IMG/VR virus record: IMGVR_UViG_3300031555_004891
Direction: 5' to 3' (one strand)
DNA: 64,000 nucleotides
Origin: a virus
Lineage: Duplodnaviria > Caudoviricetes
Both the position numbers and the translations under genes were made by a program. Shown one piece after another: positions 25,131 through 60,392 of this stretch (position 1 is its first letter; each line of letters starts with the position of its first letter). The notes below the pieces were generated by a model. It was not told the DNA's origin, ran no database searches, and was given only the letters and a program-made list of their open reading frames with translations.

Positions 25131-25528
25131 ATGGCTGGAAACGGTGCTATTAAATTCTTACGCGGTACAACAACTGCGGTAAGTAACAACAGTTCTGCAA
25201 CTTTACTTGATGGCCAACCTCTCTACATTACCAATCAGAATCAACTTGTGATTGGGGGGGGGGCAATAATGCTTTAACAAAAGCCCCTATTTCATGTAGA
25301 GAATTAATTGGTTACGCAAGTAATACATCAACAACTGAATCATATTCAATTAAATATACAGGGAATGCATTCTAGTTTAAACAGGGATCTTACACTTTAA
25401 GCTTTCCTACTTTGACTGCTAATAAAACTGTTGCATTATCGGATCACACACATAGCGGATATGCATTAAAAACTGAATTACCTGCATTTTCATATAGTGG
25501 AACAACACTCACTATAACTACTTCTTAA
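25131..25528 (+). CDS. Mtd_N-like tail-fibre protein A, frameshifted at G10 (25254-25263), 1 TAG
   Basis: 0 frame MAGNGAIKFLRGT..GQPLY..LVIGGG stops at 25277; -1 frame continues to TVALSDHTHSGYA..SGTTLTITTS, paralogous to 26739 gene. Confidence 0.8.
25254..25263 (+). repeat. G10 homopolymer tract (GGGGGGGGGGCAA)
   Basis: Direct read. Confidence 0.95.
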
Positions 25529-25551
25529 GAATAAAAAGGAGGAAATTATAG

Positions 25552-26664
25552 ATGAGTAATTTAACTATAGATACAGCAGCAATGCAAGCATGCATGTATA
25601 ATGGTAATAATGTAGAAAAATTAATCATAGATGGTACAACAGTTTGGGAAAAAATTAGTGGTCCTTTTGATATAACATTTCGTAGTTATGATGATCTGTA
25701 TACTTACTTAATTCCATCAGGATCAAATTATGGATATTATGAGTATACAGTATAGACTGACGCTAGAGGTAAGCTTGATATTGAGCAGATTCCAGCTATA
25801 AGTACTATGTGGGCATTAAATGGTGAAAGCTCGCCATACTGGATTCTTGATGGTAATGGTAACCCAGAATATAGTAATTATGAAGTGATGCTTTTATATT
25901 GCGAGGAGTTTTATGGCCCATCTGGTTCTATTGCGCATGCAGATATAGCTGATATGACTTTTTCAGGCAATGAAGACTTTTTTGCGAAACCTACTTGGGG
26001 AGGTTTTTATACCAGCACTGCGTCTGATTTAGAACTATGCACATCACTCACGATATAGAGCGCATGTCTGCTTAGCTGGTGGCCTTTAGAATCAATGTCT
26101 GATGCTATTTGGTTATATATTTACACAGATCCAGGTAGTGCAGAAGATCTATATTCTGAAAACTGGCTTGTGAGAATTAACTTAACTGATTATACGCAGA
26201 TGATGCTTGACAGACTCAATCTTCCATTTATTGATATCAATCGAGATTTAGTTTCTCAAATAATAGAAAATAATATTGGATATTGTCCATGCTATTTACA
26301 TTTTCAAGATATTAACACTAGTGGTGGTGCTGAAATTAATCCTGAGTTGTTGCATGTCTGGTAGGAAATGGAGAGCTCTGTTAATCCAGATAATCCAATA
26401 GAATTAGGTGTACGTTTAATTATTCCAACTGGAACAGCTTTTTTCCCAAGCGTTACGTGCGTCCCTGTTTCTTCAAATATACGATATGCTGTACATGACG
26501 CCGGCTATCTTTGGTTAGACAATATGGATAATGCTGACCTTGTTGATGAGTATATTTGTAGCTGTTCTCACCTTGATGTTGAACCGCTTTATTTCTGTAA
26601 TGCATTAGATTATCGAGATAGTGCTGGTAATGCGATTTGGTCTATAACACCAATAATAAAATAA
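25552..26664 (+). CDS. putative receptor-binding/tail tip protein, 370 aa, 3 TAG
   Basis: Four in-frame ORFs joined through TAG; N-terminal YNGNNVEKLIIDGTTVWEK adaptor-like motif. Confidence 0.75.
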
Positions 26665-26738
26665 TTTAAGCGATCAATTATTCTCTACATTTTTAACAAA
26701 ATTAATCAAAAAAAAATTAAAAATGGGAGAAATATATT

Positions 26739-27299
26739 ATGTCGATCACAAATCCTTCTATACAATTTTTACGCGGTACATCTACCGCTAAAAGCAACAA
26801 CAGCACAAAAGTTTTAGCTGCTGGTCAACCTTTCTATGATACAACTAATAAAAAGTTATATATTGGCGATGGTTCAACAACTTTAGGCAATTTAACTGCT
26901 ATTGGTGGTGATAATGCTGAATATACTTTAACTAAGTCTGGATCTAACATTTATTTGAAAAAAGATGGAACAACAGTTTCAACTATTACTGATGATGTTG
27001 GATCTAGCACAGATACTAACTATTATCATACACCTAGCTACTCATCAGGTTTACAAATTGCTACAGGTACTGGTGTTAACGCTTTATATGTTCCAACCGG
27101 TACAACTGCTAACACCGTTGCTTTAGGTAACCATACTCATAGTGGCTATGCTGCTTCTTCTCATACACACTCAAGTTTGACAAATGGATCTTATACAGCT
27201 ACTGCGCCTTCTAAAACCGGTACTATTGCTCTTACATCTGATGTTCCTACTATTACTTATGACTCAAGCAGCGGTACCTTAAATATAACAACTGCATAA
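26739..27299 (+). CDS. Mtd_N-like tail-fibre protein B (intact)
   Basis: IQFLRGT..LAAGQPFYD..KLYIGDG; HTH metal-knot repeats (NHTH, SHTH); ends SGTLNITTA. Confidence 0.8.
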   Translation: MSITNPSIQFLRGTSTAKSNNSTKVLAAGQPFYDTTNKKLYIGDGSTTLGNLTAIGGDNAEYTLTKSGSNIYLKKDGTTVSTITDDVGSSTDTNYYHTPSYSSGLQIATGTGVNALYVPTGTTANTVALGNHTHSGYAASSHTHSSLTNGSYTATAPSKTGTIALTSDVPTITYDSSSGTLNITTA

Positions 27300-27321
27300 T
27301 ATTGAGCGGGAGGAAGTTTTT

Positions 27322-28607
27322 ATGATTTATGAAATACTTACAGGCTCAGATTTGCAGTCATGTTTTTATAATAATTAGGATGTTTCAAAGATAATTTTAG
27401 ATGGAACACTTATCTGGTTAAAGGAAGGCACTGGTGGTTCAGATACACCTACTCCATCTTATAGTACATTAACTATTGATTTGTATTCTGACGATCCTTC
27501 TAACACAGTAGAAGGAAATATTAATGGTTATGTATACGAACTTTGCGCAGAAGGTACATCAGGTTGCTTAAAAGAATCAGATGAGAGTCTAGAAGCTGCC
27601 TTAGCAGACACTTATTGTAAGGTTATTGCTGGTGGTGGATATGCAACTACTCGAATATTTTATTACAACCACTCAGCTTTAGCTATTTATATACCAGCAG
27701 AGTCTTTGGTAGATATTGCTGGATATAACTTATTAGGTGTGCGCTTTGAGTTTGAGAATGAATTTGACTTATCTAATATTGAAACAAGAATTTGTGCAGA
27801 AAACGGTGACACTGTTGCTGTACCAGGTGATTATGCAACAGAAGTTTATAGTGGTTCACCTAGCATAAGTGGCAATAGCTTAGAACTAATTTTTGATACA
27901 GCATATGAATTATATGGAGCTAATCTGAGTCTCGGTTTTACTTTCTCATCATCAAATTGGGCTAGTAATGCAATGTTATATAATAGGATTACCTTACTGC
28001 ATGATGGGGGGGGGCAATAACCCCTGATGAACCTGATGAACCTACTGTAGCAGAGGTGTCTGATTTAACCGAAGTTTCTGCACTTGAGGATGGCACTTCT
28101 TTTATCTTCTCTGGAGAATGCTATGTAGTTGCTGTTAAGGGTAATTATGCATTATTGTGCGATGCTACTGGTTATGCTACAGTTTATATGAATGGTGGGT
28201 TACCAGAAGAGTTTACTACTTAGGGATAGGTTATAACAGATTTTACTGGTACTGTTAAACTATACCATGATGGAGTGCAGTTAACAAACATTAATGATAT
28301 CGGTTATGATGATTATTTAGTTGAAGTAAATCCTTACGAAATAGCTACAATATAGGATGCTCCAGGTTACTATATCGTTAAAGGTATATCAATAGAAGAG
28401 TATGATGATACTTATTACATTGCAAATCTTGATGGTGAGCCACTGCTGTATATTCCTAGAGAGGATAATTATGAGATAGCGCCAGGTCTTACCTATGATA
28501 TTGTTTTCGCTCAAATGTATTATAGTTCTAGATATTCTTATCCACTTAGCATAAACTCGAATCAAATTTATCTAGAGTCTATTACAGAATGTGAAGGGAT
28601 AGAATAA
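27322..28607 (+). CDS. putative receptor-binding/tail tip protein, frameshifted at G9 (28006-28014), 4 TAG
   Basis: GGAGG + ATG 27322; FYNN(Q)DVSKIILDGTLIW adaptor; 0 frame stops at 28020; -1 frame AITPDEPDEPTV... open to TAA 28605. Confidence 0.75.
28006..28014 (+). repeat. G9 homopolymer tract (GGGGGGGGGCAA)
   Basis: Direct read. Confidence 0.95.
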
Positions 28608-28696
28608 AATTGGTGTTTTTTAACGGTATATATAAATGAACAAAGATTGCTTGGCCAAGCAAAATAAAATAATTAGAAATAAGGAAATTTTTATTA

Positions 28697-29572
28697 ATGG
28701 ATACAATTAATACTGAAAATGTTATGGAACTTAATTTTGTAGATGATTCTGTTGAAGTAAGACAAAACTTGCTTTTAACTAACGCTAGAGCTAGATATGC
28801 TAATTATAGAAATTGTAGATGTCAAGGCATTGTTTGGCAACCCAGTGATACAACAGATGATGAGGGAAATGCTCTAGTTCCTGAGTTTGAAAATTGCACC
28901 TTTACAGCATGCTCATTCCTTGAACTTCCTGAAACTGCTGTAATTAGATTCTATGGTGTAAATACTTTCTATAATTGTCATTTTGGTCCTGATCAAACTG
29001 TAGTTATTGATAGCAATTGCGAATTCTATAACTGCCAAAATGTTAATATTAAATTTGCTGAGGCTAAAGCATATAAGCTTAATGTTATCGGTGGTAACAT
29101 CGCATTCCCTCAAATCACTTCTACAGCTGTTGCAGGTACTTATCCTCTCGAACTCCAAATGACTGGAGGTAAGTTAACTCTTCCTTCTGTTGTTGTTTAT
29201 GGTGATTGGGTACTTAATCTTACTAATGTTAATGTTGTAAGCTCAGCAGCTACTTGCGCATTTACTAGCATGACTATGACTGGTTGCAAATTCCAGGGTG
29301 TAGATAACCTTTATGCAGATAGAGTAGTTGGTTCAAGTCTTGCATTTAGCGGAACTTCTGCTTCTAATATTACTTTGCAAGGTGGTTCAGTAATTGGTAA
29401 TACTATTGAAAATAAAACTGCAGATGGCACGATGCTAACAGCAAAAACTGGTGTTACTTTCAATTGCTCAATTGACGTCGCTAACCGCGTAAATATGGCT
29501 AACAGAACTATGACTACAGGCTCAAGCGCTAAAACTGTAGAACATAACTACAATGGAGCTGAAACTCTTTAA
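28697..29572 (+). CDS. beta-helix-like virion/tail-associated protein
   Basis: FENCTF, FYNCHF, FYNCQ repeats; Ser/Thr/Asn-rich. Confidence 0.65.
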   Translation: MDTINTENVMELNFVDDSVEVRQNLLLTNARARYANYRNCRCQGIVWQPSDTTDDEGNALVPEFENCTFTACSFLELPETAVIRFYGVNTFYNCHFGPDQTVVIDSNCEFYNCQNVNIKFAEAKAYKLNVIGGNIAFPQITSTAVAGTYPLELQMTGGKLTLPSVVVYGDWVLNLTNVNVVSSAATCAFTSMTMTGCKFQGVDNLYADRVVGSSLAFSGTSASNITLQGGSVIGNTIENKTADGTMLTAKTGVTFNCSIDVANRVNMANRTMTTGSSAKTVEHNYNGAETL

Positions 29573-29672
29573 TTCCCATAACAATTCTTAAAATAAATAA
29601 TTAAAATAGTTGATCTTTTCCTTTATTTATATTATAATATAATTGTAAATAAAGGAAGAGGTCATTTTTATT

Positions 29673-30827
29673 ATGAAATACACAATCCATAAAGATTTAG
29701 TAGCAATGTTCGAAGAAAAGATGAAAAAATTTGCATCTAAATTCGAAAAATATGGTACCTGCGAATATCTTAAATCTAAGCCTTATGTGTGCTTAAACGA
29801 AAATAGTCCTAGATATCTTTATGAGTTAGTAGATATTGATGTAAATGCTTCTTATAAAGTTGGTGATTATTCTTTTGTAGCATCTCTCGAATGGGTAGAA
29901 GAAGCTCAAGAAAATCTTATTAAGAAAATTTCTGAGGATATTTATGTTCCTGAAATTTATAAGACTCGCAGAGAATGCGATCATTGCAACACTAAGCGCT
30001 ACAGAAAATCTACAATTATTTTGAAAAATAATGAAACCGATGATTATATCCAGGTAGGTAAAAGTTGTGTAAAAGATTACACTGGTGTAGATTTGGGTAG
30101 ATACGCTGCTTATTTGTCTTTCTTCGATGACCTTGAGCAATATTTGCAAGAATGTGAAAAAGACAATATCACCAGAATTAAGCCCATGTATAAGGTGAGC
30201 TATATTTTGGAGCAAGCTGCAGAAGAAGTTAGACATCATGGTTATATCAGCAAGAGCAAGTCCTGGGAATTAGAGACTGATAGCACTTCTAGTAGAGTGT
30301 TTATGATGATTACTAATTATATAGACTACTATACTGGCAAGAAAACTTATGAAACATATAAAGAAATATCTAAAGAAGCAAAAGAAACTGTAGAAAATGT
30401 GTATTCTTTCTATAGAGATCTTGATTCGTCTGATGATTATGTAAATAATATTAAAACTATTCTTAAGACTGATTATGTTGGCGCAGATAAAATTGGGTTA
30501 GTTGTTTCTGCTATTGGTACAAAACTTCGCATTGAAAATCAGAATAAAGAAAAAGAGCAAAAAGCTCAGTCAAATTATGTTGGCGAAGTTGGGCAAAAAA
30601 TCACATTTAAGGCTATACCTGAATGCGTATATTCTGGAAGTAGCCAATTTGGTTGGGTATATATTTATAAAATGAAAGTCGGTAATGATGAGATTGTTTG
30701 GACAACCAGCAAAGATTTAGCTCCAGATACTGAGCTCGAATTTACAGCGACTGTTAAAGCCCATGAGGAATATAGAGGTTGTAAGCAAACAGAAATCACG
30801 AGAGCGAGAACAAAAATTGCTTTATAA
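29673..30827 (+). CDS. early phage protein with CxxC and C-terminal OB-fold-like domain
   Basis: ECDHC..RYRK..QVGKSC; YVGEVGQK..ATVKAHEEYRGCKQT. Confidence 0.75.
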   Translation: MKYTIHKDLVAMFEEKMKKFASKFEKYGTCEYLKSKPYVCLNENSPRYLYELVDIDVNASYKVGDYSFVASLEWVEEAQENLIKKISEDIYVPEIYKTRRECDHCNTKRYRKSTIILKNNETDDYIQVGKSCVKDYTGVDLGRYAAYLSFFDDLEQYLQECEKDNITRIKPMYKVSYILEQAAEEVRHHGYISKSKSWELETDSTSSRVFMMITNYIDYYTGKKTYETYKEISKEAKETVENVYSFYRDLDSSDDYVNNIKTILKTDYVGADKIGLVVSAIGTKLRIENQNKEKEQKAQSNYVGEVGQKITFKAIPECVYSGSSQFGWVYIYKMKVGNDEIVWTTSKDLAPDTELEFTATVKAHEEYRGCKQTEITRARTKIAL

Positions 30828-30846
30828 TATAAAATAGTAAATAAAT

Positions 30847-30876
30847 AAGCTCAGATAAAATTCTGAGCTTATTTTC
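30847..30876 (+). terminator. intrinsic terminator
   Basis: TAAGCTCAGA...TCTGAGCTTA + TTTT. Confidence 0.7.
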
Positions 30877-31098
30877 ATGTATAGATATATAGAGGACAAA
30901 CTTATGGATACACCTTCTATTTCATTTAAAATTGGTGAAAAAATTAAGAATAAAAGTGGCGAAATTATATACATATGCGACATTGTATATTCGATGGTAG
31001 AAAAAGGCTGGTTAGTAATATACTACGAGTTAGATAAGCAAGATAAAATTCAAAAAATGAACACTATGTCTTTAGATCTTTTTAGCATGGGGTTGTGA
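30877..31098 (+). CDS. hypothetical protein
   Basis: ORF. Confidence 0.55.
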   Translation: MYRYIEDKLMDTPSISFKIGEKIKNKSGEIIYICDIVYSMVEKGWLVIYYELDKQDKIQKMNTMSLDLFSMGL

Positions 31099-31101
31099 TA
31101 T

Positions 31102-31647
31102 ATGGATAGTAAGGAATTATGGCACCAGTATAATTTATCTTATGATGACCAACTCAACTTCCTAAAAAATAAATACGGATTACCTCAAGGAAATTATTTT
31201 CTTACTGAGAGTTGCAAATCTACAAATAACAAAATAAAAAGAGCTAAAGAAGGACTTTACGTGCATCATGATTATGAGTGGAATCCAAATGACTGGACAT
31301 GTCATAGCTTAAGCACTCAAGAATTAGCCTTAAAATACCCTTTCGAATATCAATTAAGTGATCATCTAACATACTGTAACATGTTAGAGCATTTAATGTT
31401 GCATATGAAAATTTATAGATTAAGACGCGATTATCTAGGTGGACCAATTTTTACAGATGGGGTACAAAATTTCTTGATACCACAAATAAATGATATTTAT
31501 CAGACTAGAAAATATAAGCAAGAATGGCTTATAGCAACAAAAGAAGCTATAGTAGAAAATTATAATGATTATATTGAGCTGATAAAAATTCATGCAGAAG
31601 ATAGTGATCAAGATGTTGTAGATCTATATGGTTTATCTTTAAGATAA
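31102..31647 (+). CDS. hypothetical protein, HNH-like His pattern
   Basis: LYVHH...LTYCNMLEHLMLH. Confidence 0.65.
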   Translation: MDSKELWHQYNLSYDDQLNFLKNKYGLPQGNYFLTESCKSTNNKIKRAKEGLYVHHDYEWNPNDWTCHSLSTQELALKYPFEYQLSDHLTYCNMLEHLMLHMKIYRLRRDYLGGPIFTDGVQNFLIPQINDIYQTRKYKQEWLIATKEAIVENYNDYIELIKIHAEDSDQDVVDLYGLSLR

Positions 31648-31720
31648 TGTATAACAAACTATGTGTGGATAAACTATTTACTTAAGAATAGTTAGTCCTT
31701 TTCCATATAGAGGGAGTAAT

Positions 31721-34700
31721 ATGTTTATAGTAAAAAGAAGCGGTAAGCGTGAAAAATTTGACAAAGAAAAAATAAAAATTGTTTTAGAAAAAGCTAATGA
31801 AACAGTTTTAGAAGAGTATCGAATATCTAAAACTATAATAAACAATATAGCTGAGAAGATCGAGAAGCTAGCAGAAGAAAATGCAACTATGTTTACTATA
31901 GATGATATCCAGGATGCAGTGGAAGATTATCTCATTAAAATAAATAAATATGAGTTAGCTAAATCATATATAAAACATAGATATACGAAAGAATTAGCTA
32001 GAGATAAATATTCTAAGATGATGGATGCTATTGCGAATAAAGTAGCATGCAAAGATATCCAAAATCAAAATGCTAACTTAGATGAAAAATCTTTTGGTGG
32101 TAGAATTGGTGAAACATCATCTTTAATAATGAAACAGTTTGCTTTAGATTATTGTGTATCACCCAAAACTAGAGAGAATCATCTCAATAATGAGGTTTAT
32201 ATACATGACCTCGATTCTTATGCTGTTGGAAGTCATAACTGTTTAAGTATTCCTTTTGATAAGCTATTAGCTAAAGGCTTTAATACTAGACAAACTGATG
32301 TTAGACCTGCAAATAGTGTTAATACAGCCATGCAGTTAGTTGCTGTTATATTCCAATTACAAAGTTTACAACAATTCGGTGGAGTAAGTGCAACACATCT
32401 AGATTGGACGATGGTTCCATATGTGAGAAAATCTTTTGCAAAACATTTTAAAGATGGTATGGAAGAATTACCTTTCAAGTGGTGGAAATTGTTTAAGGAT
32501 ACTAGAAACTATCAACCACCAAAAGAATTACCTTTCGATGATGCTACTATAAACTTAAAAAGATTTAGAAGAGTTTATAGATATGCTATGAAAATGACTA
32601 AAAAAGAAACCCATCAAGCAGTAGAAGCTTTATATCATAACTTAAATACATTGCAAAGTAGATCTGGCTGCCAACTTCCTTTCACCAGCATTAATTTAGG
32701 AACATGTACGCAAGAAGAAGGGCGGTTAGTCAGTAAAGAAATTCTTACTGTGTGTAGACAGGGTTTAGGTAAGTTTCATAAAACATCTATCTTCCCATGT
32801 GTTATATTTCAATGCATGAAGGGTGTTAACCGTAAAAAGGGTGATCCTAATTATGATTTATTTAGGCTAGCATTAAAATCAACTGCTGAGAGATTATACC
32901 CCAACTATGCTAATGTAGATTGGAGTGGTAATGCTGGATATGATCCAAAAGATCCTAAAACATATTTTTCAACGATGGGTAAGCGTAAACTACAGCTCAT
33001 CTAAAATCTTTTGAACCTCGCTCGAGGGTGTTTAATATTACTAAATGGGTAGAACCTTAAATATTTTTAATTAAAGGTTATGCTAAATTTATTGATAATA
33101 TTTTGCTAACGGTTAGGTCCAGACATCCTGGATGAGACCGTGCTAAGCGGGTGAGGATAGATTTGGTTATATACAAAATAACATGTTTAAAAAATAATAA
33201 AATTTATATAGGTCAAACAAAAAATACATCTAGAAGACGTTTCGAACATCATGTTAAAGGTGCCTTAACAAATGATTTAGATACGCATTTAGCTAGAGCT
33301 ATAAGAAAATATGGTCCAGAAAACTTTATTTTAGAAGATATAGATTTTGCTGAAAATCAAGAAGATTTAACTGAAAAAGAGTATTATTGGATAAATTTTT
33401 ATGAAAGCTTTAAGCCAGATATTGGTTATAATGAGACAAATAATAAAAATAAATGCGGCGGAAATACATATAAATTTAAAAGTATTGAAGAAATGCAGAA
33501 AATAAAACGTAAAATCTCAAAAGCAAATTCTGGTTCTAAAAATGGTATGTCAAAAGGTGTTAAATGTAAAAACACAAAAAGCGGAGAAGAATTTCATTTT
33601 GGTTCGACCGCGGAATGTGCTAGGTTTTTTGGTACATATGTAACTGGTTTTATAAGAAAACGCTGTTGTGGTTACAATTACCTATATAAAAATACCTGGG
33701 CTTTTGCTTGGGAAGATGATCAATTTCTTTTAGAATATGAGAATTTTGATCCATCTACTAGAAAAGGAATAAAAGTTTAGCTTTTAAATTTAGAAACAAA
33801 AGAGGTATATACTTTTAATAGTAAAAGTAAAGCAGCAAAATTTCTAAATGTTGAGTTAGCAATTATTAAACATGATATTATTGTAAATAATTATAGAATA
33901 TCTATTCTCAACTGAAAGTGTATCGACTATTCCTGATGAGTTTAAGGAAGTAGGATTGGAGATAAGCACCAATCCGAAGCGGAAGACTACTTATAATAAA
34001 AGTAGAAGATATAGTCAGTGCTAACAGTAATGTTAGATAAAATGTGTAGAACAGCGAATGGTTATGATATAAACGGCTTTGCTCAACTAAAAGACGGTAG
34101 AGGAAACATAGCACCTACTACTATAATTCTTCCAACATTAGCTATGGAAGCAGAGAAAGATGTTAAGAAATTTATGCGCCTTTTGAGAATTAAGTTAGAA
34201 GAAGCGAAAGATTCTTTAATTGATAGATTCGAATGGATTTCAAGTCAATCATCAGATTCTGCAAAATTTATGTATGAAAATGGAACTATGGAAGGTTACA
34301 TTCCGAAAGAAGGAATTAGATCAGCATTAAAACATGGTACTTTAGCTATCGGTATGTTAGGTATGGCTGAGACTTTAGAATTATTAGTTGGTTGTAATCA
34401 TACTAAACCAGAAGGAATGAAACTAGCAAAGAGAATTTGTTCCTTATATAAACAAAAATGTGCTGAGTATAAAGAAACATATAAGCTTAATTTTGGCGTA
34501 TATTACACACCAGCTGAGAATCTTTGTTATACTGCAATGAATAAATTTGTAGAAGCTTATGGTGTTATTCCTAAAGTTTCAGATCATGAGTATTTTACAA
34601 ATTCTATCCACGTACCAGTTTGGGAAGAAATAGATGCTTTTGAAAAAATAAGAATTGAAAGTGAGCTTACTGGATATAGTTCAGCTGGTTGTATAACATA

Positions 34701-35019
34701 TACTGAGTTAGATGCATCTGTAGCAAAAAACATAGATGCTTTAGAAGATTTAGTTAATTTTGCTATGGATCATGATATCCCGTACTATGCGATTAATGTA
34801 CCGGTAGATCAATGTATGAGTTGTGGCTATCAAGCAGAAATTACAGAAGATATTTGTCCTAAATGCGGTAGTACAAAAATACAGCGATTGAGACGTGTGA
34901 CAGGTTATTTGACAGGTTCCTATAAAGATTCTTTCAATTATGGTAAGCAGAAAGAAACCGAAGCTAGGGTAAAACATACAGGTATTTCTGTATTAAAAGA
35001 TAGCGAGGATAATGCTTAA
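31721..35019 (+). CDS. nrdD: anaerobic ribonucleotide reductase, two exons (31721-32980 and 34045-35019)
   Basis: ATP cone, IHDLD, spliced MG|CRT, TPAE, CxxC...CPKC, RRVTGYL glycyl-radical motif. Confidence 0.93.
32981..34044 (+). mobile_element. group I intron in nrdD
   Basis: Exon GATGGGT pairs with guide GCTCATC (32995-33001) with U.G at the splice site; P7 GACTA / AAGATATAGTC; terminal G 34044; removal restores MGCRT. Confidence 0.9.
33151..33915 (+). CDS. intron-encoded GIY-YIG homing endonuclease (1 TAG)
   Basis: VIYKI..KIYIGQT..R..E..GYN; TAG 33778 read through into a second NUMOD1-like repeat, TGA 33913. Confidence 0.88.
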
Positions 35020-35486: not shown

Positions 35487-35491
35487 TTTTT

Positions 35492-35520
35492 AAGACCCCT
35501 GCATTTAGGGGTCTTTTATT
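35492..35520 (+). terminator. intrinsic terminator
   Basis: AAGACCCCT...AGGGGTCTT + T tract. Confidence 0.8.
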
Positions 35521-35550
35521 TTGTATAATATTATGTGGAGGACTATTTAA

Positions 35551-35949: not shown

Positions 35950-35993
35950 AATTACTTATAATAAATTATATAATATAAGCAAGAGGTACATAT

Positions 35994-37965: not shown

Positions 37966-37967
37966 TT

Positions 37968-38498: not shown

Positions 38499-38506
38499 GG
38501 TGAACT

Positions 38507-41080: not shown

Positions 41081-41094
41081 GGTGATATACGATT

Positions 41095-49224: not shown

Positions 49225-52200
49225 ATGGAAGATAAAATTGAAAAACTTAAAACAGCACTTTGTACAGCAAAAGCTGTCGCATCATTTTTTAAAGATGAGC
49301 TTGATGATGGTACAGCTAACTTCGATCATCCGCTTTTATTTAAGCCTGATGGAATGACAAAAAAGCAAATTTTAGAAGCTTTTGAAAAAGCGCTTATCCG
49401 TTGTGAAATCGAAACCATTGGAATTTGGAAAAATTGGATACACATCTATGGTGTTGTAGATGGTCAAGGAAATCGAAGAACAACTATGGCTGAAAAATTC
49501 TCAGAAGCTTTAGAGAAGCAAGGATTTAAATCTTGCGTATATTATCAGATGGATTGAGGTGAAATATGAAAAAAGTTTACATAGTGACTGTACAGCATGC
49601 TAATTATACATGGGAAAAAGTTTCTCAAGAAGGTTATGATTCTTTGATAAAAGCTCAAAAATTTATAGAATCTAGATCTGATAAGCCTGAAAAATTTACT
49701 GATTTTAATTATAAAAGTGACTCAAATATTTATCGAATTTATGAGATTTCTGTGGTGTAAATAGTTGATCTTTTTCTTGAAATATATTATAATATAAGTG
49801 TAAATAAAAGAAAGAGGTGTTAAATATGAAACTTGAAACATTACTTGAAAAGCTTGATTCTTATAAAGCTGGATCTTTCATCAATCTCGCATGGGAAAGG
49901 GAAGTTTCTAGCGCAAAAGCTAAAAAAGCCGGTATAAAGATAAGCAAGAAATCTGCTGGTCTTATTCGTACCGATGTTAATTACTCTGCTCTCGCAGCTG
50001 TTCAAGGTATTGAGCGTGGCGAAAAAGAATCATGGTTTGAGCATTATAGAAAAGGTCTTTTGCAATCTAAAAAAGATTCTTCTAAAAAATATTTGCAAGC
50101 GTTTCCGGTTCCTGGTAAGAAAATCTCTTCTATTATGGTAGTAGATACTGGATCTGAAGTGTATGAATGTGATGCTGAAAAGCTTTATGCTGATGGTCTT
50201 ATCACTAAAGCTGCTTTAGGAAGCAAGACTGGAACTGATACTTTTATCGTTAGCGTAGAAAATATTACATCTTTTGGAGGTAACGAGTAATGAAAGTTAA
50301 ACAAATCACTGGTCTTATTGATTATCCTGATGATGTGCAGGTGACGCTTTATGATTACACTAAATCAGATGTAGTGTATGTAGGTTTGGAAGAAAATATT
50401 CCAGAATATTATTTAGATGAAGAAATTCTCGGAATTGAGATTCCTAGCAAAAATGAAATCATGTTAAATATTAAAACAAAATAAATTAAAATATTGAGAG
50501 GTATATATTATGTCAAATCGAACTGTTGTTGTTGCTCCTTATGCTGTTTCTGGTGGCGCTTTTGGCTTTACGCCGGTGTTGAAGAAAAAGAAGCCTAATT
50601 TTGGTGGTATGTTCATTATTAATGGTAAGCAAGTTTATATCACCAAAGTTATCTACAATGATCCAGCTACTGTTGTATTCTGGTCTGATGGAAAGAAAAC
50701 CACTGCTAAATGCGATAAAGCAGATACATATAACAAAGAAGTTGGTCTTATGCTTTGTGTTATGAAGCGCATGGTTGGCGGTGAGCAAGTCTCTATGCTT
50801 TTCAAAGATTGGGTAACCGAAGATAAAGTTATCGATCTCAAGAAAGTGCGCGAAAATCAAAAAGTAAAGGTAGAAGCGAAAGAAGAAGTTAAAGAGCAAA
50901 ACGCATGAAAGTAACAGAAGTAAAAACATATACTTGCGAATACTGTGGTTTAACATTAGTTAATGAGGAAATGATGGCTTTTCACGAAGAAATTTGCCCT
51001 GAAAATCCTCAGAACCAACCTTGCAGTAAATGCCGTAGATGTGAAATTAATGGTTTTACTGGTGATGCTAAATGCTCTAAAAATATGGATATGGAAGGAA
51101 TTGGCGGTAAAGTCTTATGCTTCTTCTACCAAAAAGGACAACCAGAAATACATATTTAATAGAATAAAAATAAGAGCAGTATAGCGTAAAATAGTATACT
51201 GCTCTTTTCTTTGAGGAAAAACTCTTATGGAACAAATAAGTTCAAGAAAACCTGTAGCTAGAAAAGAATATTGCTGTGATTATTGTAGAGATAAAATTAA
51301 AAAGGGACAGCGTTATTATAGAAGCTTTTGGAAAGATGATGTAGCTTATGAGTGGATAGCTCATCTAGAATGTCAATTTATAGTTAATGAGCTCTGGGAT
51401 TATTATGATCCAGATTATGGTGTTGACTCAGAAAATTTTGGAGAAATGTGTCATGATTTCTGTCAGAATTTTATTTGCCCTGCTTGCGAATATTGGGATA
51501 AAGCGTATGACGAATGCAGCGAAGATAAATGCTACATAGAATGTTTTGATAAAATTGTAGAAACATTAAAAAAGAAATACATAAAGTATATACCAAAGCA
51601 ACCTGGCGACTGGTTTGGACAATATATTTTAGTAGATAGAGAGAAGGTGATTGAAAATGTCTAGATATGATAATAATAACAATTCTGGATTAGGATTACT
51701 AGATGTTGCTGAAATAGCTTGCTTTATAGTTTTCTTAGTCTTTAAATTGGTCGGTTTAATTGATTGGTCATGGTGGTGGGTAACGGCACCGCTTTGGGGT
51801 GGATTCCTGCTTAATCTATTTATTATTTTAATAGTGTTTATTGTAATGTGGATTTACATAAAGTGGGATGGAAGACATTATTAAATTAGTTGATTTCTTA
51901 ATTAAAAGATTATATAATATAAATATAAAATTTATTAAAGGTAACTTTTTATAATGAAAAAATTAGTAATCACTTTGTTAGCATTTTTAACGATTTTTAG
52001 TTTTACAGCTTGCAATAGCAATAATAAAGATTATGAGGAATATCAACCAACGCAAGGTTCAATGTTTGCCTGCATTGAGTCTTACGAAGATCCTTATTTA
52101 GGTGCAGTAACAATTCTCGTAGATAGAGAAACCAGAATTATGTATATGCATTATTGGGAAAATGCCAGTACGGATTATGGAGTTAGTGGCATTACCGTTT

Positions 52201-52253
52201 TATATGATTCAGATGGCAAACCTAAAAAATATAATGGAGTGATTACAGAGTAA
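49225..52253 (+). CDS. run of small TAG-free early ORFs (49225, 49566, 49817, 50290, 50510, 50905, 51227, 51651 membrane, 51954 lipoprotein-like)
   Basis: Follow promoters at 49163, 49765, 51890; FTAC lipobox-like in 51954. Confidence 0.65.
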
Positions 52254-52945
52254 TGTTAAAAGTTTATTGTGATGGTGCATGTAGTGGTAATCCTGGTCCT
52301 GGTGGTTGGGCATTTGTAATTCCTAAATTCGATATTGAGATATCAGATTATGAAGAGCAAACAACAAATAATAGAATGGAAATTACTGCAGTAATGAAGG
52401 CTCTCGAATATTTATTGGAACATTTTTTCAATGAAGATAATATAGAGATAATTACTGATAGTCAATATGTTATTAATACAATGACTAAAGGGTGGCAAAA
52501 GAAAAAGAATACAGATTTATGGGATAGATTAGATAATGCTGTAGGAAAATTTAATTCTGTAACCTGGACATGGGTTAAAGGCCATGCAGATAACAAGCAC
52601 AATCAACGATGTGATGAACTTGCTGTTGCAGAATACAGGGCGTATCAAGAGAGTAAACGAACAATTAAAGAACTTGAAGAAGAAAGGGAATTAAAATGGT
52701 ATGGTAAACAAATTCCATTAACCTCAACTCAAAAAATAGTTGTAGAATTTGCTCCACTTGAACAATACGATGTAGGTAAAAATCATTTTGTTAATATTCT
52801 AAAATGCACAGCGATTGATGCTGTTTATGCAGCAGAAGCCGATAATAATGAGCTTTTATGTATTGGATCTTACTCAGAATGCCGGCAAGTATTACAAAAT
52901 TACAAAAGTTTAGTAGAAGATGATTTTCGGAGGATTCCTTTTTAA
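52253..52945 (+). CDS. rnhA: ribonuclease HI with C-terminal extension
   Basis: DGACSGNPGPGG, TNNRME, TDSQY, WVKGH, N.RCDELA. Confidence 0.93.
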   Translation: MLKVYCDGACSGNPGPGGWAFVIPKFDIEISDYEEQTTNNRMEITAVMKALEYLLEHFFNEDNIEIITDSQYVINTMTKGWQKKKNTDLWDRLDNAVGKFNSVTWTWVKGHADNKHNQRCDELAVAEYRAYQESKRTIKELEEERELKWYGKQIPLTSTQKIVVEFAPLEQYDVGKNHFVNILKCTAIDAVYAAEADNNELLCIGSYSECRQVLQNYKSLVEDDFRRIPF

Positions 52946-52947
52946 TT

Positions 52948-54609
52948 ATGATTCTTAATATTTTATTATCAGCTTTATTAGCTGCCACGCTCTTCCTAAT
53001 GTCTATGGGAATTATCTATCACGTGATACACCCGAATTATGAAGATTATCTAGAAGAAGAAACAAAAGCTGATAAAAAAGCTGACATATCTCTTATAGTA
53101 AATATTATTCTTTTCATTGGCTTTATTTTTGCTGGAATTGGTATAAGTGATAATGGTGATAAAAAATTTGTTGCAGAATATCAAGCTCAAAAATATACTA
53201 TCGAATCTAGCCTTGAAAATGCTGATTTAACAGGTCTTGAAAGAATTGAGTTAGTAAAACTAGCCACAGAGTTAAATAAAGATTTAGCAGCTAGAAAATA
53301 TAATTTCAACAAATGGTATAATGTGCATTATGATAATTCTATTTATGACAATATAGAATTTATTAATTTGGGAGGTACGCAAGAATGAACATCATTACCT
53401 GGGAATGGTTTATGATAATCGGCTTAATTGTAGGTTGGTCAGGTTTTTTGATTGGTAAAATTATTTATGATAACAGTTACTCTTTAGAAACTTTAGGGAC
53501 AGTTATGGCTGTTATTTCAAGCGTAATTCTTCTTTTGTCTGTTATTCTTATGATTCCATTGACATTAGCTCAAAGTAAAGTTGAAAAAGAATATAGCAGG
53601 TATATGGAAATTAAAACAGAATATTACGAAGCAAGAATAAATTATTTAGAAAATCCCGATGATGATTTTGCTAAAATTGCTTTAGATCTTGCTGAGCAAA
53701 AAGTCGAGTTTCAATGGAATGCTTGGTATGATACATATAAAGACGACTTAAATAATGAGTGGCACCTTTGGGGAACCAGCAGCTACGCTAAAAAGATGGA
53801 TTATATTGAGGTTAAATAAATTATGTTACCTGGCGTTATAATATTAGATTCTTATCAGTATGTAAGCGAATATAGTGCATTTAAAACAGGTCCGTTTTTG
53901 TTAACCTGCTTAGCTATATTCTTAGGTTGGATTATTCTAATTTTCGCCATATTAATCGGTTTGGATGGCAACTTTTCTAGTCTAAAAGATTCTTTTGTTT
54001 GGTTTTTTACTTTATTTGCTTCTTTTTTAATGACAATATTTATGGGAGCTCTGGTTAGTCTATGTTTTCAAGGCGATCCTATTGAGTATACCACTGTTTA
54101 TAAGGTAACTACAATGGATACTGTAAATGTGAATGATTTTACTGATATGTATGAGATAATCGAAGTAGAAGGTAAAATCTATACTGTAAAGATAAGAGAA
54201 AAATAAACAGGAAGTGTTGATAATGGAAGGTGTTATTGAGATTAGTAAAGAAGCTATATATGGTTGCTGGCAATATGCTTACATATTTGGTATTATTAGC
54301 TTTTTTATCTTTAGTTGTATTTTTACTTATACCATTATAAAGAATAAGAAATCTGGTGTTATTTATGATTGCAAGAATGTACTGCTGACTATTATTCTTT
54401 ATATTTTAGGAGCTATAGCTTCATGCATGGTTGTTATTTTAGCGGACTGTTTTGGTAAATTATTAGATGAGAAGAATTGCCCCGTTTTGTATTATGAGTA
54501 TACTGTTAAAATTACTGATGACGTTGATTTTGGTAAATTTAAAGATACATATAAAATATTAAGAGAAACAGAAGATAATACATATATTGTTATTTTGAAG
54601 GAAAATTGA
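52948..54609 (+). CDS. four tandem two-TM membrane proteins (52948, 53385, 53823, 54214)
   Basis: Paired hydrophobic helices in each. Confidence 0.7.
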
Positions 54610-54612
54610 TCT

Positions 54613-55116
54613 ATGTTTAGTGTTAGAAAAAATACGTTTGAAACAAATAGCTCTAGTACGCATTGCTTATGTTATGAAAAATCTGTAGAGCTCAAATCTG
54701 AAGATCTAGAAAAATTAAAAGAAGCTTATATAATTAAACCATATACGCAAGAAGAAATAGATGATGTTATGGAAATTACATCTATAAAAGATAAGTTAAG
54801 ATATTTCTACACTTTGTACATACAGGCTAATCATACTAGCAATAAATTTATGAGAAAGCTAAAAAATATTGTACCAAATGTTATTTTTAGTGAAGAATTT
54901 CCAGATGAGACTTATATTCTTGAAGATGGGGACAGCTTTATGGAAGGTGGTTACTTTGCTCCAGCAGAATATGAGATATTAACAGATGACTTGCTCACTA
55001 AACTTTTATTATATGGAAAAATCTATTTTGGTGATAGAGATAGAGAATCTTATTCGGATAAAGTATATGGCATCGAGCATAGTGATGCTTATTTTTCCAT
55101 GGTTTGGAGCGGTTAA
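54613..55116 (+). CDS. phage protein with RxxxFETNSSSxH motif
   Basis: VRKNTFETNSSSTH. Confidence 0.75.
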   Translation: MFSVRKNTFETNSSSTHCLCYEKSVELKSEDLEKLKEAYIIKPYTQEEIDDVMEITSIKDKLRYFYTLYIQANHTSNKFMRKLKNIVPNVIFSEEFPDETYILEDGDSFMEGGYFAPAEYEILTDDLLTKLLLYGKIYFGDRDRESYSDKVYGIEHSDAYFSMVWSG

Positions 55117-55235
55117 TTTATTTATTTTATAAAATTACAGACTTAAATTATAAATTATATCAGCAAAACAATAAAAAATCAAAAACAGATAACTGTATAT
55201 AATAGAGAAGATAATCAAATCTTCTCTATTTTTAT

Positions 55236-55326
55236 TGCCCCTTAGGTTAATGGTAAACCGCCGGTCTCTAAAACCGTTATACTCTCTGAAAGGGTAATCT
55301 GGGTTCGAATCCCAGAGGGGTAGCCA
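55236..55326 (+). tRNA. amber-decoding tRNA (CUA) with long variable arm
   Basis: TGCCCCT/AGGGGTA acceptor, G73, CCA; loop CT-CTA-AA (55268-70); 6-bp extra arm; CTGGG-TTCGAAT-CCCAG T arm. Confidence 0.9.
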
Positions 55327-55330
55327 ATAC

Positions 55331-55408
55331 TGGGGATTAGCATAACGGCTATTGTGCGGCGGACTCTAAATCCGTTTTGAGCTGGGTCGGCACCAGCATC
55401 CCCCGCCA
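55331..55408 (+). tRNA. amber-decoding tRNA (CUA), Gln-like acceptor stem
   Basis: TGGGGAT/ATCCCCC (U1.C72, G2-C71, G3-C70), G73, CCA; GCGGA-CTCTAAA-TCCGT; atypical T loop GTCGGCA. Confidence 0.88.
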
Positions 55409-55443
55409 ACTTAAAAATAATTAACTTTCCGGAGGCTCTTATT

Positions 55444-55911
55444 TTGAAACTATTTAGAAATTTCAAACTTTGTAGAGAAACTAGAAAAGAAATAAAGCAA
55501 GCAGAAAAAGAAAAGAAAAGATGTGCAAAAAAATATTCTGATTGGAAAGATGATGAGTATAACTGCGGTCCACTTAAATTTATTTGGGGATTAAAATCTT
55601 ACGATGACCTATCTTCTTGCGATGTTAATTTTTATTCTATGAACGATATAGATGTATATTTCAATAGGGATACTCAAAAATATATTTTAGGTATTGAAAC
55701 TATCTTTAAGTTTGAAAGTCAAGATCATAGAATAAAATATCTAGAAAGATTATTAAAAGCATTTAAAGAATATATGAGTGGTAAATTTGATAGTACTTTT
55801 GACCCACACAACTTATATTTATATAATGATGGTAATTTTTTTCAAGCAAGTAGTTTGACAGAGCTTTATTATAAATTTGAAATATTTGTGACTGGTTATA
55901 GTCAACTTTAA
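55444..55911 (+). CDS. hypothetical protein
   Basis: GGAGG + TTG start. Confidence 0.65.
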   Translation: MKLFRNFKLCRETRKEIKQAEKEKKRCAKKYSDWKDDEYNCGPLKFIWGLKSYDDLSSCDVNFYSMNDIDVYFNRDTQKYILGIETIFKFESQDHRIKYLERLLKAFKEYMSGKFDSTFDPHNLYLYNDGNFFQASSLTELYYKFEIFVTGYSQL

Positions 55912-56013
55912 TTCTTTAGAGGTAAGCTTATTAAATTTAATCTTTAAGTTAGATTTAGTACAAAAGCTATGCTAAATTAAATAGATAATCTTTAATATGC
56001 TTAAAATATTTAT

Positions 56014-56385
56014 ATGAGAACATTTGAGTATTTTTTCACTAGACAAGCAGTTGGAGAGTTAGAAGTAGAAGATATGGGTAATTGCTGTATCGAAGCCACT
56101 AACGATCAAGGTATGCTTTATTATTTAGTAACTGATACGAAATTAGGCTAGACTAGAATTTTTGAGTATGGTCCAGCTATACCTGATTTTGATGAGTTAC
56201 CAAAAAGTGTTTATTGCGCTTTTTCTAGAATAGAATATGATGAGCGTAAACTTACAAAAAAGATTTCAGAATTTCTTAATAGTCCTACTCGAGAGATTAC
56301 GCAAGCTTTCGAAGTTGATAGAGATATTTGTTTCTCTAATTGTAAATGTATAAATGACTATATGGAAAATAAAGAAAACTTTTAA
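56014..56385 (+). CDS. hypothetical protein (1 TAG; absent from ORF track)
   Basis: ATG 56014 to TAA 56383 with a single TAG. Confidence 0.65.
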
Positions 56386-56399
56386 GGGTTATAAATTAT

Positions 56400-56603
56400 A
56401 TGGCTAAACAGTATATTAAAGATTTTTACGGTCGAGTAATAGGATCTTTGGAAGAATTATCAAACGGAGATATTATTGCTAAAGACTTTCATGGTAGAGT
56501 AAAAGGTAAATACAGAAAATCAGATAACACAACTAGAGATTTTCATGGTAGAGTTGTTGCTAAAGGAAATCAAGTTGGAATGTTAATAACATCTGATAGA
56601 TAA
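56400..56603 (+). CDS. small beta-repeat protein
   Basis: Three (K/R)DFxGRV repeats. Confidence 0.7.
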   Translation: MAKQYIKDFYGRVIGSLEELSNGDIIAKDFHGRVKGKYRKSDNTTRDFHGRVVAKGNQVGMLITSDR

Positions 56604-56654
56604 AATCAGGGGAGAATCTATTAGCTACCCCGTTAATGAGGAATTTATAAAGAC

Positions 56655-59015
56655 ATGGCTGGAAATAATGTAATACAGATACTCAGGGGTACTAGAGATG
56701 AGATCGCTTCTAACAAAAATAAAGATGTGATGCTCAACGAAGGTTAGCTTCTTTATAATCTTACAGATAATTATCTTACCTGTGGTGGTGAAAATGGTAG
56801 TAAGTTAACTAGCCTACCAGTAACTACTAGAAGTATGTCAGGTCATTATGATGATTAGATAATGGGAATATTGCCATCTAATTGCCTTGATGGATCTGTT
56901 GATAAATACAGAGTGGGCCCAGTAGTAACACCAACTAGAGTAGAGTATGATGAGAATGGCGATCCTATAAAAACTTATTATGACTCAAAATTTGAAATAG
57001 ATTCTGCTTTAGGATCAAAAATTATCTTAGGCTCAGATTTTATTAAGTTATCTTTAAGTGATGGTAAACATGTAACACTAAATTCTTCAGGTTTTTCATC
57101 ATCAAGTGGATCATCTGCTAGCTCAGTAAACGCAACAGATTTATCAGCATCTTCTGCAAATATTGGTGGAGCACTTACTTCGAGAAGCATAAGTGTTGGT
57201 GGAACTAAGACTTATTTATCCGCTAACGGTAATGCTGTAACTTTAAGAAATGCTAAAAAGATTCTATTAGATGGTGAAAATGGTACTATAGAGCAAAAAG
57301 CAAGCAGCATAACTCAAGAAGCCATAGTATTAGATTCTAAAGTTGCTGTTATTAATTTCAATTCGCAAGTAGAGATTGGAACTACTGCTGCTAGATTAAA
57401 TCTAAAATTCGCTAAACCAACTAATATAGATGGGAATATTAATTTTACTGGAAAAGTAACATCATCTTACACACCTAGAGATGAGAATGATGTAGTAAGA
57501 CTTAAAGATTTAGGTGTTAATATAGATTAGTTGCAAGATTCTATCGATGGAATTGTTATTCCAGATAAATCTTCTTCATCTGCAGTAAGTGATTCTGTAG
57601 TTGTAACTGAGTCAGATTTAGATGATCAATATTCTGTTATTATAAGTACTGCTGGTGAAAAATCAGCTTTATCAGCTACACCTAAAAATTTAGTATCTAT
57701 AAATCCTAAAAATGGTAGAATGACTGCTGGTAGATATACTGTGAGCACAGCAGATCAGCAAGTTGAAAGAGATAATGCACACGGTATAAATTTAAATAAC
57801 TCTGATGCAATAAACGCTCATGCTATACACTTTAATAACACTGGAAATTATGGTTTAACATTCTCTAGTAAGAATGATCGCTTTTATGTAGATAGAGGCA
57901 CTGCTTTTATCTAGACTAAAAATGATAAAAATGAAACTATAACTAAAACACTTCTTACTCAAGAAGGTGGTGATATAACAACCCTTAATATATAGAATGA
58001 TTTTACCGTTGGCGGTAAATTGACTGTTAATGGAAGCTTTCAACCAAATAAACTAGTTATAGCTGGTGCTAATTAGCATGTGCGTGATGGTGCTAAATCT
58101 TATGGTTTCTATGCAAATAATTCTGATATTGATGGTGTATATAATATAAGGTTTGAGACACATGCAGATAACCCAGATCAAGGTATCTTATTCTAGAATC
58201 GTGATTTTGATAATCAATATTATAGATTAGCAGCTGAGACATCAAATACAGGACCTAAGTTATATTTAAGTACTGTAAAGTATGATGAAAGTGGTAAAAA
58301 AGTTATTGGTGTTGGAACTAATGATTCTCATGTAAAATACGAAGTTATAACATCTAAAGGTGGATAGACTATAGGTGATGGAACTACCACAAACAATCTT
58401 TAGATGTTTACAGTAAACGGTCACCAAACAGTAACAAAGACCTTAACAGCAAACAAAGCTTCTTTAACAGATTTATCTGTTAGCGGCGGTGCTGTAAGCA
58501 TTAAGAATAAAAGCAATAAAACAGGTGAAATAGTCTTAACAGATGGAAGTGTTACTGCTAAAACTATAACTGCTACTGATACTATAAAATCTAATAAAAA
58601 TATAATAGCCAGCGGTGATATTACAGGTAACGTATTGCAGACTAGTGGTTCTCATAATGTAGTTATCGATGGTAATACAGGTAATATTTCCGGTGCTTAT
58701 CTAGATGGTACAGCAAATTATGCTAAACACTTAGCGCCTGGAGCCGTTAAATTAGGCCTTCTTCCTGAAGGCACCTATACAGGTAACGATCCAAACACTT
58801 TGTATATTTTAGTATGTAAATCTAGCGATGGCAAATCGAATTGCACATTTAAGTCTAAGTATGCTTATGATTATTGCTATATAAGAATATCTTCCGATGA
58901 TGATCACAACAAAGAGGACGCTGGAAGCATGAGTGCTGGAACTGAGTTAAAAATACATAATGATACAAATGATGATTGGATACATACTTGGTTGTATGTA
59001 TACACTAAAAATTAA
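56655..59015 (+). CDS. long Mtd_N-like tail fibre C, 786 aa, 9 TAG
   Basis: VIQILRGT..LNEG(TAG)LLYN..LTCGG; no TAA/TGA until 59013; G/S/T-rich beta repeats. Confidence 0.85.
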
Positions 59016-59052
59016 AAAAAAAATAAAAATTTATATATAGGAGTAAAAATCT

Positions 59053-60392
59053 ATGAGTAATAACAAATCTATTTAGTTACTCAGGGGCTCAGATACTAGT
59101 ATCAAAGCCTCAACAGACACTTTGCTCCCCGGTCAACCTCTCTACAACTTGACTACAAAAGAGTTTTACGTAGGGGGGGGGGCAACACCACTATTAAAAG
59201 TCTTACAGGTATAACAGCCAATAAGACAAAAAATGCTCTAACATTTAGCTCGGCAGGCTCTGGAGCATCTAGTGGAACAACTTTTGATGGAAGCACAGCA
59301 AGAACTATAAGTTACAACACAATTGGTGCTGCTGCAGCTTCTGATGTGCAATATGCTATAAATAAAGATAATTATTTGGTAATCTATACAAATAAAAATT
59401 CTCAATCAACTAGCAATATCGTTTATACTAATTATCCAGTATACACAATTACTTTTAACGCTGGGAGTAATGGTACCTGCTCAACATCAAGCAAATAGAC
59501 TGTTTTAGGTTATTTATCAAGCACACCTAGTGTAACAGCTAATTCTGGTTATACATTTAAGGGTTGGTATACATCAAGCAGCGGTGGTACTCAAGTAACT
59601 ACTAGCTATAAGTTTACAGGTAATGCAACTGTTTATGCTCAGTATACAGCAGCATCTACAACAACATATAAAGCTACATTCTATACAGATGGTGGATCTG
59701 TTTCACCTAGTTATGTATCAGCTAATTCTAGCAACTATTTAGATGCTTCTACCTTACCTATACCAACAAAATCTGGTTATGCGTTTGGTGGTTGGTACCT
59801 TGATGCTTCTTATTATAACCAATTTACTTCTAGAACATTAACTAGCGATATAACTCTATATGCGTACTGGATTGATTCTAGCAGTTACGATTGGTTTGGT
59901 CCAGTAAATCCTTCTGGTGGATTTGTAGCGTTGAGAAAACCTATAGATGCGTCCGATGATTATTATGCGTTCGCACCAGTTTTAAATGATGAGTATGATA
60001 GTCCAGCTAACTACATAGCATATGGTCAGTGGCAAGAAGAAAATCAACAGCTATATTTTAATCCGGAAGATGCATTTACTGATGCAGATACATGGTCTGG
60101 TGAAATCTATATCGGTGTTCAGAGTGAACAAGGTATCTTCATACCTGCAAATTGTGTTAACAGTTCATGCCTTCCAGATACTAACTATAATTTAAATGAT
60201 GGAAATACTAATTATGACAATGGTTGGGCTACCCTTGAGTTTGAACATCTTCCTGGTGTTATTTGTCCAGCAGATGAGGGTATTGCTGAAATTACAGGTG
60301 TTGCCGCTACTACAATTGTTATAGATAGAAATTCTATGTGTGCTGGCGATTGCGGCGGTGATGGTAGTGAAATATGGCACGATATATCTTAA
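59053..60392 (+). CDS. Mtd_N-like tail fibre D with two InlB-B/Flg_new-type repeats, frameshifted at G10 (59173-59182), 2 TAG
   Basis: SI(TAG)LLRGS..PGQPLYN..FYVGGG; 0 frame stops at 59214; -1 frame gives TFDGSTARTISYNTIGA, GYTFKGWY..VYAQY, PTKSGYAFGGWY..LYAYW and joins the 59931 ORF. Confidence 0.85.
59173..59182 (+). repeat. G10 homopolymer tract (GGGGGGGGGGCAA)
   Basis: Direct read. Confidence 0.95.

Follow-up and report, generated by a model that had tools for sequence, protein, structure and literature searches.

The subject of this report is a set of three long runs of G that each break a tail-fibre or tip-like gene in a 64,000-nt stretch of Caudoviricetes DNA (Duplodnaviria; IMG/VR record IMGVR_UViG_3300031555_004891), referred to below as the window. 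The source phage is an uncultured, TAG-recoded jumbo phage of ~210-260 kb from the herbivore gut. The window has a G+C content of 31%, and the plus strand is the coding strand for every gene.

Poly-G tracts and the frames behind them

Runs of seven or more G occur at only three places in the window, namely G10 at 25254-25263, G9 at 28006-28014 and G10 at 59173-59182, all on the plus strand, and no C run of seven or more was found within it. Shuffles of the window are expected to contain 0.06 matches to a pattern of eight G, and a first-order model predicts 0.0 runs of eight or more. Because runs of G5-G7 are under-represented (fewer than the model expects), the run lengths are bimodal, being either five or fewer or nine or more. 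An earlier note on this DNA had claimed that the only long G runs sit in fibre or tip genes and that CAA follows each of them; the run scan and the shuffles bear out the former point, and the latter is confirmed in the sequence. The genes and tracts are listed below, OFF meaning that the long downstream frame is closed.

25131-25277, plus strand: site-1 fibre gene, 0-frame product of 48 aa (ATG at 25131, stop at 25275-25277), an Mtd_N-like anchor plus four out-of-frame residues
25254-25263, plus strand: poly-G tract 1, G10, OFF; in-frame length 11 nt
25262-25528, plus strand: site-1 continuation in the -1 frame, 88 codons, with an HTHS fibre motif and one TAG
25552-26664, plus strand: tip-like gene of module 1, 370 aa, three TAG, intact
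26739-27299, plus strand: Mtd_N fibre paralog without a tract, IGDG encoded as ATT GGC GAT GGT; 33 bits
27322-28020, plus strand: site-2 tip-like gene, 0-frame product of 232 aa ending in GGGQ and a stop; P0004 is identical
28006-28014, plus strand: poly-G tract 2, G9, OFF; G10 would be in frame
28014-28607, plus strand: site-2 continuation in the -1 frame, 197 codons, a PDEPDEP linker and then a C-terminal domain; three TAG
56655-59015, plus strand: Mtd_N-like fibre paralog without a tract, 786 aa, nine TAG; TGT GGT GGT
59053-59214, plus strand: site-3 fibre gene, 0-frame product of 53 aa with TAG at codon 8 (ATG at 59053, stop at 59212-59214)
59173-59182, plus strand: poly-G tract 3, G10, OFF; in-frame length 11 nt
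59181-60392, plus strand: site-3 continuation in the -1 frame, 403 codons, with two Listeria-Bacteroides / InlB-B repeats

At site 2 the 0 frame reads GGG GGG GGG CAA TAA, and one added G at sites 1, 2 and 3 opens 88, 197 and 403 codons, respectively. Re-reading of the frames agrees here with the earlier note, which had described -1 frames of these lengths behind early 0-frame stops. The junction peptides expected of the full-length frames are IGGGGNNALTK, VGGGGNTTIK and HDGGGAITPDEPDEP.

The anchor domain connects several of these genes. Pfam sets its Mtd_N (PF18454) cut-off at 26.3 bits. Gene 26739 exceeds this value with 33 bits, and the N-termini of the site-3 gene (22.4 bits) and the site-1 gene (16.9 bits) fall short of it. 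The N-terminus of the site-1 product matches that of gene 26739 at 53% over 45 aa (E 1e-8), and the site-1 and site-3 genes are clear paralogs of 26739 with the common motif GQPLY...(I/V)GGG. At these two sites the tract itself encodes the last glycines of the Mtd_N domain; the paralogs 26739 and 56655 have IGDG and CGG at the tract position, written in mixed codons and with no run. This codon comparison agrees with the earlier description of a run at the conserved (I/V)GxG that ends the N-terminal domain, with two paralogs lacking it. The site-2 gene shares its N-terminal ~35 residues with the adjacent tip-like gene 25552. Runs of a different kind, A9 (26708-26716) and A10 (59014-59023), lie just upstream of the ribosome-binding sites of genes 26739 and 59053, and no length variation of either was found in any contig examined.

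Homology searches with the fibre proteins returned little. None of nine fibre pieces matched PHROGs, an IMG/VR scan using the site-2 protein gave no match, and a search for longer homologs corresponding to a fused site-2 protein found none. The N-terminal part of the site-2 protein has a weak fn3-like lead (0.83), below evidence level. Flg_new matches the C-terminal part of site 3 with 82 bits, and both the IMG/VR scan and an exhaustive representative search with this part recovered only unrelated Flg_new repeat proteins.

A scan of IMG/VR for an Mtd_N motif followed by a G run recovered one genome, G001 (233 kb, estimated complete), which is syntenic with the window and whose core proteins show 50-70% amino acid identity. 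It contains two long G runs, G9 at 24270 (site A) and G9 at 178136 (site B). Site A lies at the same Mtd_N codon position and, as assembled, leaves a 52-aa stub; at a length of G8 or G11 the frame would continue into a 782-aa fibre that contains SHAEG repeats. Site A requires a +1 shift, opposite to that of the window, and the offset is thus not conserved. Site B lies in a short open reading frame (ORF; MILSIIKTGGGQ..., L013 1478-1535, corresponding to G001 178113-178170) ~190 nt upstream of an Mtd_N fibre gene. This ORF stands right behind a deformylase homolog, and with G10 it would run past a stem-loop almost to the Mtd_N gene.

Long G runs are otherwise rare in this group. No G run of eight or more was found in 18 further relatives (two of them near complete), and in the three of these that were read completely, neither G nor C forms a run of six or more; for relatives of 90-233 kb each, a first-order model expects ~2-9 G runs of six or more per genome. 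Slippery G/C runs appear to be purged genome-wide, the fibre tracts excepted. In the related phages G001, G002, G004 and G008 (30-40% G+C), G5-G7 runs are strongly depleted, with 7 seen against ~48 expected in G008. In JGI metagenomes, the pattern GQP(L/F)(Y/F)-N21-33-G8+ gave at least 120 chance matches, and no real Mtd_N gene was present among the matches listed.

Tract alleles in public assemblies

Six animal-faeces runs contain most of the stretch as contigs, and no RNA run containing it was found. Over 24900-28800, contigs of the runs X3, X4 and X7 bridge tract 1 as G10 and a contig of X3 bridges tract 2 as G9, and no indel variants were found in the contigs of four runs over this interval, where covered. 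Further contigs of the phage, from JGI, ENA and Logan, were found via exact-protein look-ups.

Site 1 is G10 in at least 24 public contigs. In a strain with 98% nucleotide identity, L220 (ENA ERZ27303204), the sequence at this site is GGAGGAGGGGG, which is 11 nt long and in frame, and ...VIGGGGNNALTK... is encoded in a single frame (P0007). The product of P0007 has 81 aa, as against the 48-aa stub, and the junction peptide IGGGGNNALTK that had been predicted in the earlier note is literally encoded in it.

Site 2 is G9 in most contigs. The same length, ending in GGGQ and a stop, was found in L212, which is 82% identical in protein, and the changes between L212 and the window in the site-2 continuation are mostly synonymous in the -1 frame. 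The -1-frame continuations are therefore considered to be under selection, since they are open for 88, 197 and 403 codons and are conserved in G001 and L212. A 262-kb contig of JGI 3300032167 and two similar places have a site-2 ORF of 247 aa that ends one base later; this product and coordinate are exactly those predicted for G10, the alternative ORF being 179 aa. The same contig keeps the 48-aa site-1 stub, indicating that the sites vary independently.

Site 3 is G10 in most contigs, G9 in L216 and G7-A-G3 in L228. The L228 allele is 11 nt long and in frame, and gives a 125-aa ORF under translation table 11. No mismatch to the window was observed in L216 over 4.1 kb or in L228 over 3.2 kb, so that the tract is the sole difference of either contig from the window. 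JGI sample 3300024268 yields both L216 (G9) and another contig, L230 (G10). Length changes thus toggle between an intact and a truncated product, as shown by P0007, the 125-aa ORF of L228 and the 247- versus 179-aa ORFs. The earlier note had regarded tract length and position in related phage genomes as informative, and the comparison proved to be so: tract length differs between assemblies, and the G001 tract has the same position and another offset.

Could the true lengths be G11, G10 and G11, all in frame, with short reads or assemblers under-calling each by one? Each pure tract is exactly one below its in-frame length and the interrupted tracts are 11 nt long, as such an artefact would have it. 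Logan contig depth is low (5-10x), and contigs often break at tracts: those of independent assemblers start or stop at them or within ~50 nt, one contig of run X4 starting inside tract 2 and one of run X6 ending inside tract 1, with tract 2 unbridged in X6. However, JGI, ENA (k141) and Logan assemblies agree on these lengths over many samples, the site-2 ORF coordinates of one sample point to an assembled pure G10, and one G more would leave both G001 site A and the L216 allele still out of frame. Sequencing by synthesis is not known to cause systematic consensus shortening of 10-nt runs, which also counts against an artefact, and in Campylobacter data of this kind routinely serve to score poly-G tracts 8-11 long. 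Under-calling is thus a very unlikely explanation.

Changes other than tract length were also observed in these genes. In two JGI assemblies (L210 and L211), a G at 27781 is missing (ATATT-G-AAACA), and the site-2 gene is cut to 128 aa (P0003). In L224 and L225 a G is lost at 28323 (TTAGTT-G-AAGT), 13 nt from the contig ends, which may be an artefact. The fibre region of L220 is rearranged (4001-6300 of its 213,578-bp contig) between flanks that are 98% identical: the site-1 gene is intact and has an additional HxH repeat block, window positions 27069-28357, the part with site 2, are absent, and codon 9 of its version of gene 26739 is a stop. L218 (1-1878) and L219 (3-1373) contain a wholly different long fibre gene instead of the site-3 gene. 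This gene lies directly upstream of the conserved 80-aa gene at 60534-60776, indicating cassette replacement at the site-3 locus.

Some of these changes are what plain decay would produce, in which mutational hot spots knocked out dispensable accessory fibre genes and no adaptive reversible switching takes place. The second, non-tract frameshift at 27781, the loss of 27069-28357 from L220 and the replaced site-3 gene of L218 and L219 fit such a history, as does the OFF state of all four coding tracts (three in the window and one in G001). However, open downstream frames, 88-782 codons long, have survived in DNA that is AT-rich, with conservation across diverged phages, and in-frame alleles coexist within the same strain background. 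In addition, G9-G10 occurs at a conserved codon position in two phages that are ~30-50% diverged in protein and from which G runs are otherwise purged, which argues for maintenance of the tracts. Decay is accordingly judged improbable for the set as a whole, and at site 2 it is a real rival.

Proposed slipped-strand switching and its alternatives

The three tracts are best explained as slipped-strand poly-G contingency loci in accessory tail-fibre and tip genes, with a probability of about two in three (0.68). This reading is based on the DNA varying at the tracts and hardly elsewhere, on the coexistence of in-frame and out-of-frame alleles, and on the different offset in a diverged phage; run lengths far beyond chance and the frequent contig breaks at the tracts point the same way. 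Slipped-strand ON/OFF variation was one of the alternatives offered in the earlier note, and it is supported by the tract-only differences between otherwise identical contigs, among which both frame classes are present.

In the proposed mechanism, the polymerase would slip on the G run during DNA replication, gaining or losing a G. A full-length fibre would be made at a tract length of 11 nt (sites 1 and 3) or 10 nt (site 2). In the OFF state the product would be a stub, truncated just past the Mtd_N anchor at sites 1 and 3 and ahead of the C-terminal domain at site 2. With all three sites OFF, the assembled genome would represent the majority state, and ON alleles would be present in minority or alternative populations, some of them locked ON by an A within the run. 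Switching would presumably be frequent and reversible, and it would presumably alter which receptors or hosts the virion can use. In Campylobacter, poly-G tracts have a modal length of 9, G8 tends to lengthen by one G, and G11 mostly shortens by one and is ten times more mutable (PMC3401435). That the tracts of the window stand one G below their in-frame lengths (11, 10 and 11) would follow if long G tracts mostly lost a G. The probability of one common offset among three OFF tracts is 1 in 4, and the agreement is statistically weak.

Several points weigh against slipped-strand switching. Alleles were read from assembled contigs (JGI, ENA k141 and Logan), and, judging by sample numbering and year, most assemblies apparently derive from one campaign of related faecal samples, so that the allele counts are not independent. 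OFF alleles dominate: at site 1 the at least 24 contigs have G10, and the G9 of site 2 extends to the 82%-identical strain. No contig had a pure G11 at sites 1 or 3, where the in-frame alleles are interrupted tracts; this pattern would be expected just as much if a stable OFF template were decoded at the RNA level or if the tracts were systematically under-called by one base. For the JGI 3300032167 contig, G10 at site 2 is implied by ORF coordinates and not read from DNA, and the G9 of L216 lies only 21 nt from the contig end.

The earlier note had also proposed, from the shared offset, programmed -1 frameshifting or transcriptional slippage. The OFF state would then be the designed one, and slippage of RNA polymerase, or -1 slippage of the ribosome on GGG, would set the ratio of stub to full-length product. 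All three window tracts being exactly one G below in-frame length, the OFF consensus of almost every assembly (for site 2, the 82%-identical strain included), the intact and conserved continuation frames, the interrupted rather than pure G11 form of the in-frame alleles at sites 1 and 3, and the CAA that follows five of five long tracts irrespective of register would all be in keeping with such recoding. However, the homologous G001 tract requires the opposite shift, and site 3 has a G9 allele (L216). No consistent 3' structure was found either: when 100 nt from the first tract base, tract included, were folded, the z scores relative to shuffles were -0.61, +0.81 and -1.52 for sites 1-3. For efficient -1 shifting, the YYY of the X XXY YYZ heptamer has to be A or U, and documented bacterial transcriptional slippage takes place on A/T runs; here the shift site is all G, with no heptamer of the A/U type. 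Programmed recoding as inferred from the shared offset is thus unsupported. Since DNA-level tract variation is directly seen, recoding at the RNA level need not be invoked separately and is considered unlikely. Some full-length product may nevertheless be added by RNA polymerase slipping on OFF templates, as OFF alleles dominate and the contigs show no pure G11 at sites 1 and 3.

The CAA context is a regularity in its own right. CAA follows all five long tracts (three in the window and two in G001), compared with 2-3% of G runs generally, at window positions 25264-25269, 28015-28020 and 59183-59187, at L015 1579-1581 and at L013 1510-1512. These five contexts fall in three different reading registers. 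Sites 1, 3 and A have the CAA in common by homology (GGC AAY); site 2 is in another register (G GCA ATA), and G001 site B apparently lies outside coding sequence. The motif TGAT(T)-Gn-CAATAA is common to sites 1 and 2. When the three homologous sites are taken as one event, two more CAA coincidences have p ~6e-4. This regularity might stem from tracts recombining with one another, or from slippage requiring this sequence.

A bolder and rather improbable proposal is that tract and CAA together form a dedicated signal with which the phage tunes fibre stoichiometry, instead of only switching fibres ON or OFF. By one route, the signal would promote slippage of the phage's own polymerase or of RNA polymerase, and a stable OFF template would give a set ratio of Mtd_N anchor-only caps to full-length fibres. 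By the other, it would be a junction for gene conversion or recombination, through which switchable tracts would pass from one fibre cassette to another.

Genomic setting and known systems

The surroundings of the fibre cassettes include the following two features.

24099-24791, plus strand: peptide deformylase gene of the phage (PF01327, 79.5 bits), immediately upstream of the first fibre cassette
55236-55408, plus strand: two tRNA genes with a CUA anticodon, which would read TAG in the fibre genes

In addition to the peptide deformylase, the neighbourhood of the cassettes contains replication genes encoding topoisomerase II, SbcC-like, RecA-like and NrdD proteins. The topoisomerase is 43-46% identical to that of the nearest cultured relatives, which are large phages of Gram-positive hosts, and the host of the present phage is probably a gut anaerobe of the Bacillota. 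The earlier note had called the three tract genes doubly gated because they also carry TAG codons. This is true as a description, but TAG is read through in-frame across many window genes beyond these three, and it forms no special gate.

Which known systems do the tracts resemble? Hypermutable poly-G tracts have reportedly been described in receptor-binding protein genes of Campylobacter Fletchervirus phages. Poly-G in such genes is established for these phages (Sorensen et al. 2021, as cited in PMC10579305 and PMC10877375). As in Fletchervirus, several intragenic G runs of ~9-10 lie in receptor-binding or fibre genes of an AT-rich genome, and tract length switches between a full-length and a truncated gene. 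Unlike Fletchervirus, the present phage is an uncultured, TAG-recoded member of an unrelated lineage, its interrupted, locked-ON alleles coexist with pure tracts, and the OFF state still gives a complete anchor because two of the tracts sit exactly at the end of Mtd_N.

Contingency loci have also been reported in T2, T4 and other phages (Gomez, Barrick & Waters 2025, bioRxiv 10.1101/2025.10.21.683753). These share with the present tracts the simple-sequence repeats, reversible frameshifts by polymerase slippage and population-level bet-hedging (10.1101/2025.10.21.683753); they are mostly short repeats in all gene classes, whereas here three very long G runs are confined to fibre genes. The poly-G/C surface genes of Campylobacter jejuni, Neisseria and Haemophilus are similar in tract length (9-10) and in length-dependent indel bias (PMC3401435), but they are cellular genes with measured rates, whereas the present tracts are viral, and the polymerase responsible may be that of the phage or of the host.

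In programmed -1 frameshifting and slippage (lambda G/GT; Thermus dnaX A9), short and long products share an N-terminus, as they would here. Unlike in those cases, the tracts of the window have neither an A/U heptamer nor a stimulatory structure, the offset is unconserved and the DNA itself is variable. Bordetella BPP-1 Mtd and its diversity-generating retroelement resemble the present case in the Mtd_N family (PF18454) and, as a theme, in a switch of tropism by way of the distal fibre, but here the reading frame shifts where the N-terminal domain ends, and there is no adenine mutagenesis of a C-terminal variable repeat. A retroelement reading, suggested by Mtd_N, is not favoured because what varies is tract length and not A-specific substitution.

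Poly-G switching is thus already known in kind; what is particular here is the setting in a TAG-recoded jumbo phage, the placing of a tract exactly where the anchor domain ends, the three independent switches and the locked-ON alleles. As contingency loci, the tracts would extend poly-G switching of receptor-binding proteins beyond Campylobacter phages to an unrelated, stop-codon-recoded gut jumbo phage, in which three independent switches would allow as many as eight combinations of fibres. In metagenomic phage genomes, a broken fibre gene can reflect biology and not an assembly error, and annotation pipelines should keep such tract-broken genes. Tract-length spectra in metagenomes could report on phage-host dynamics.

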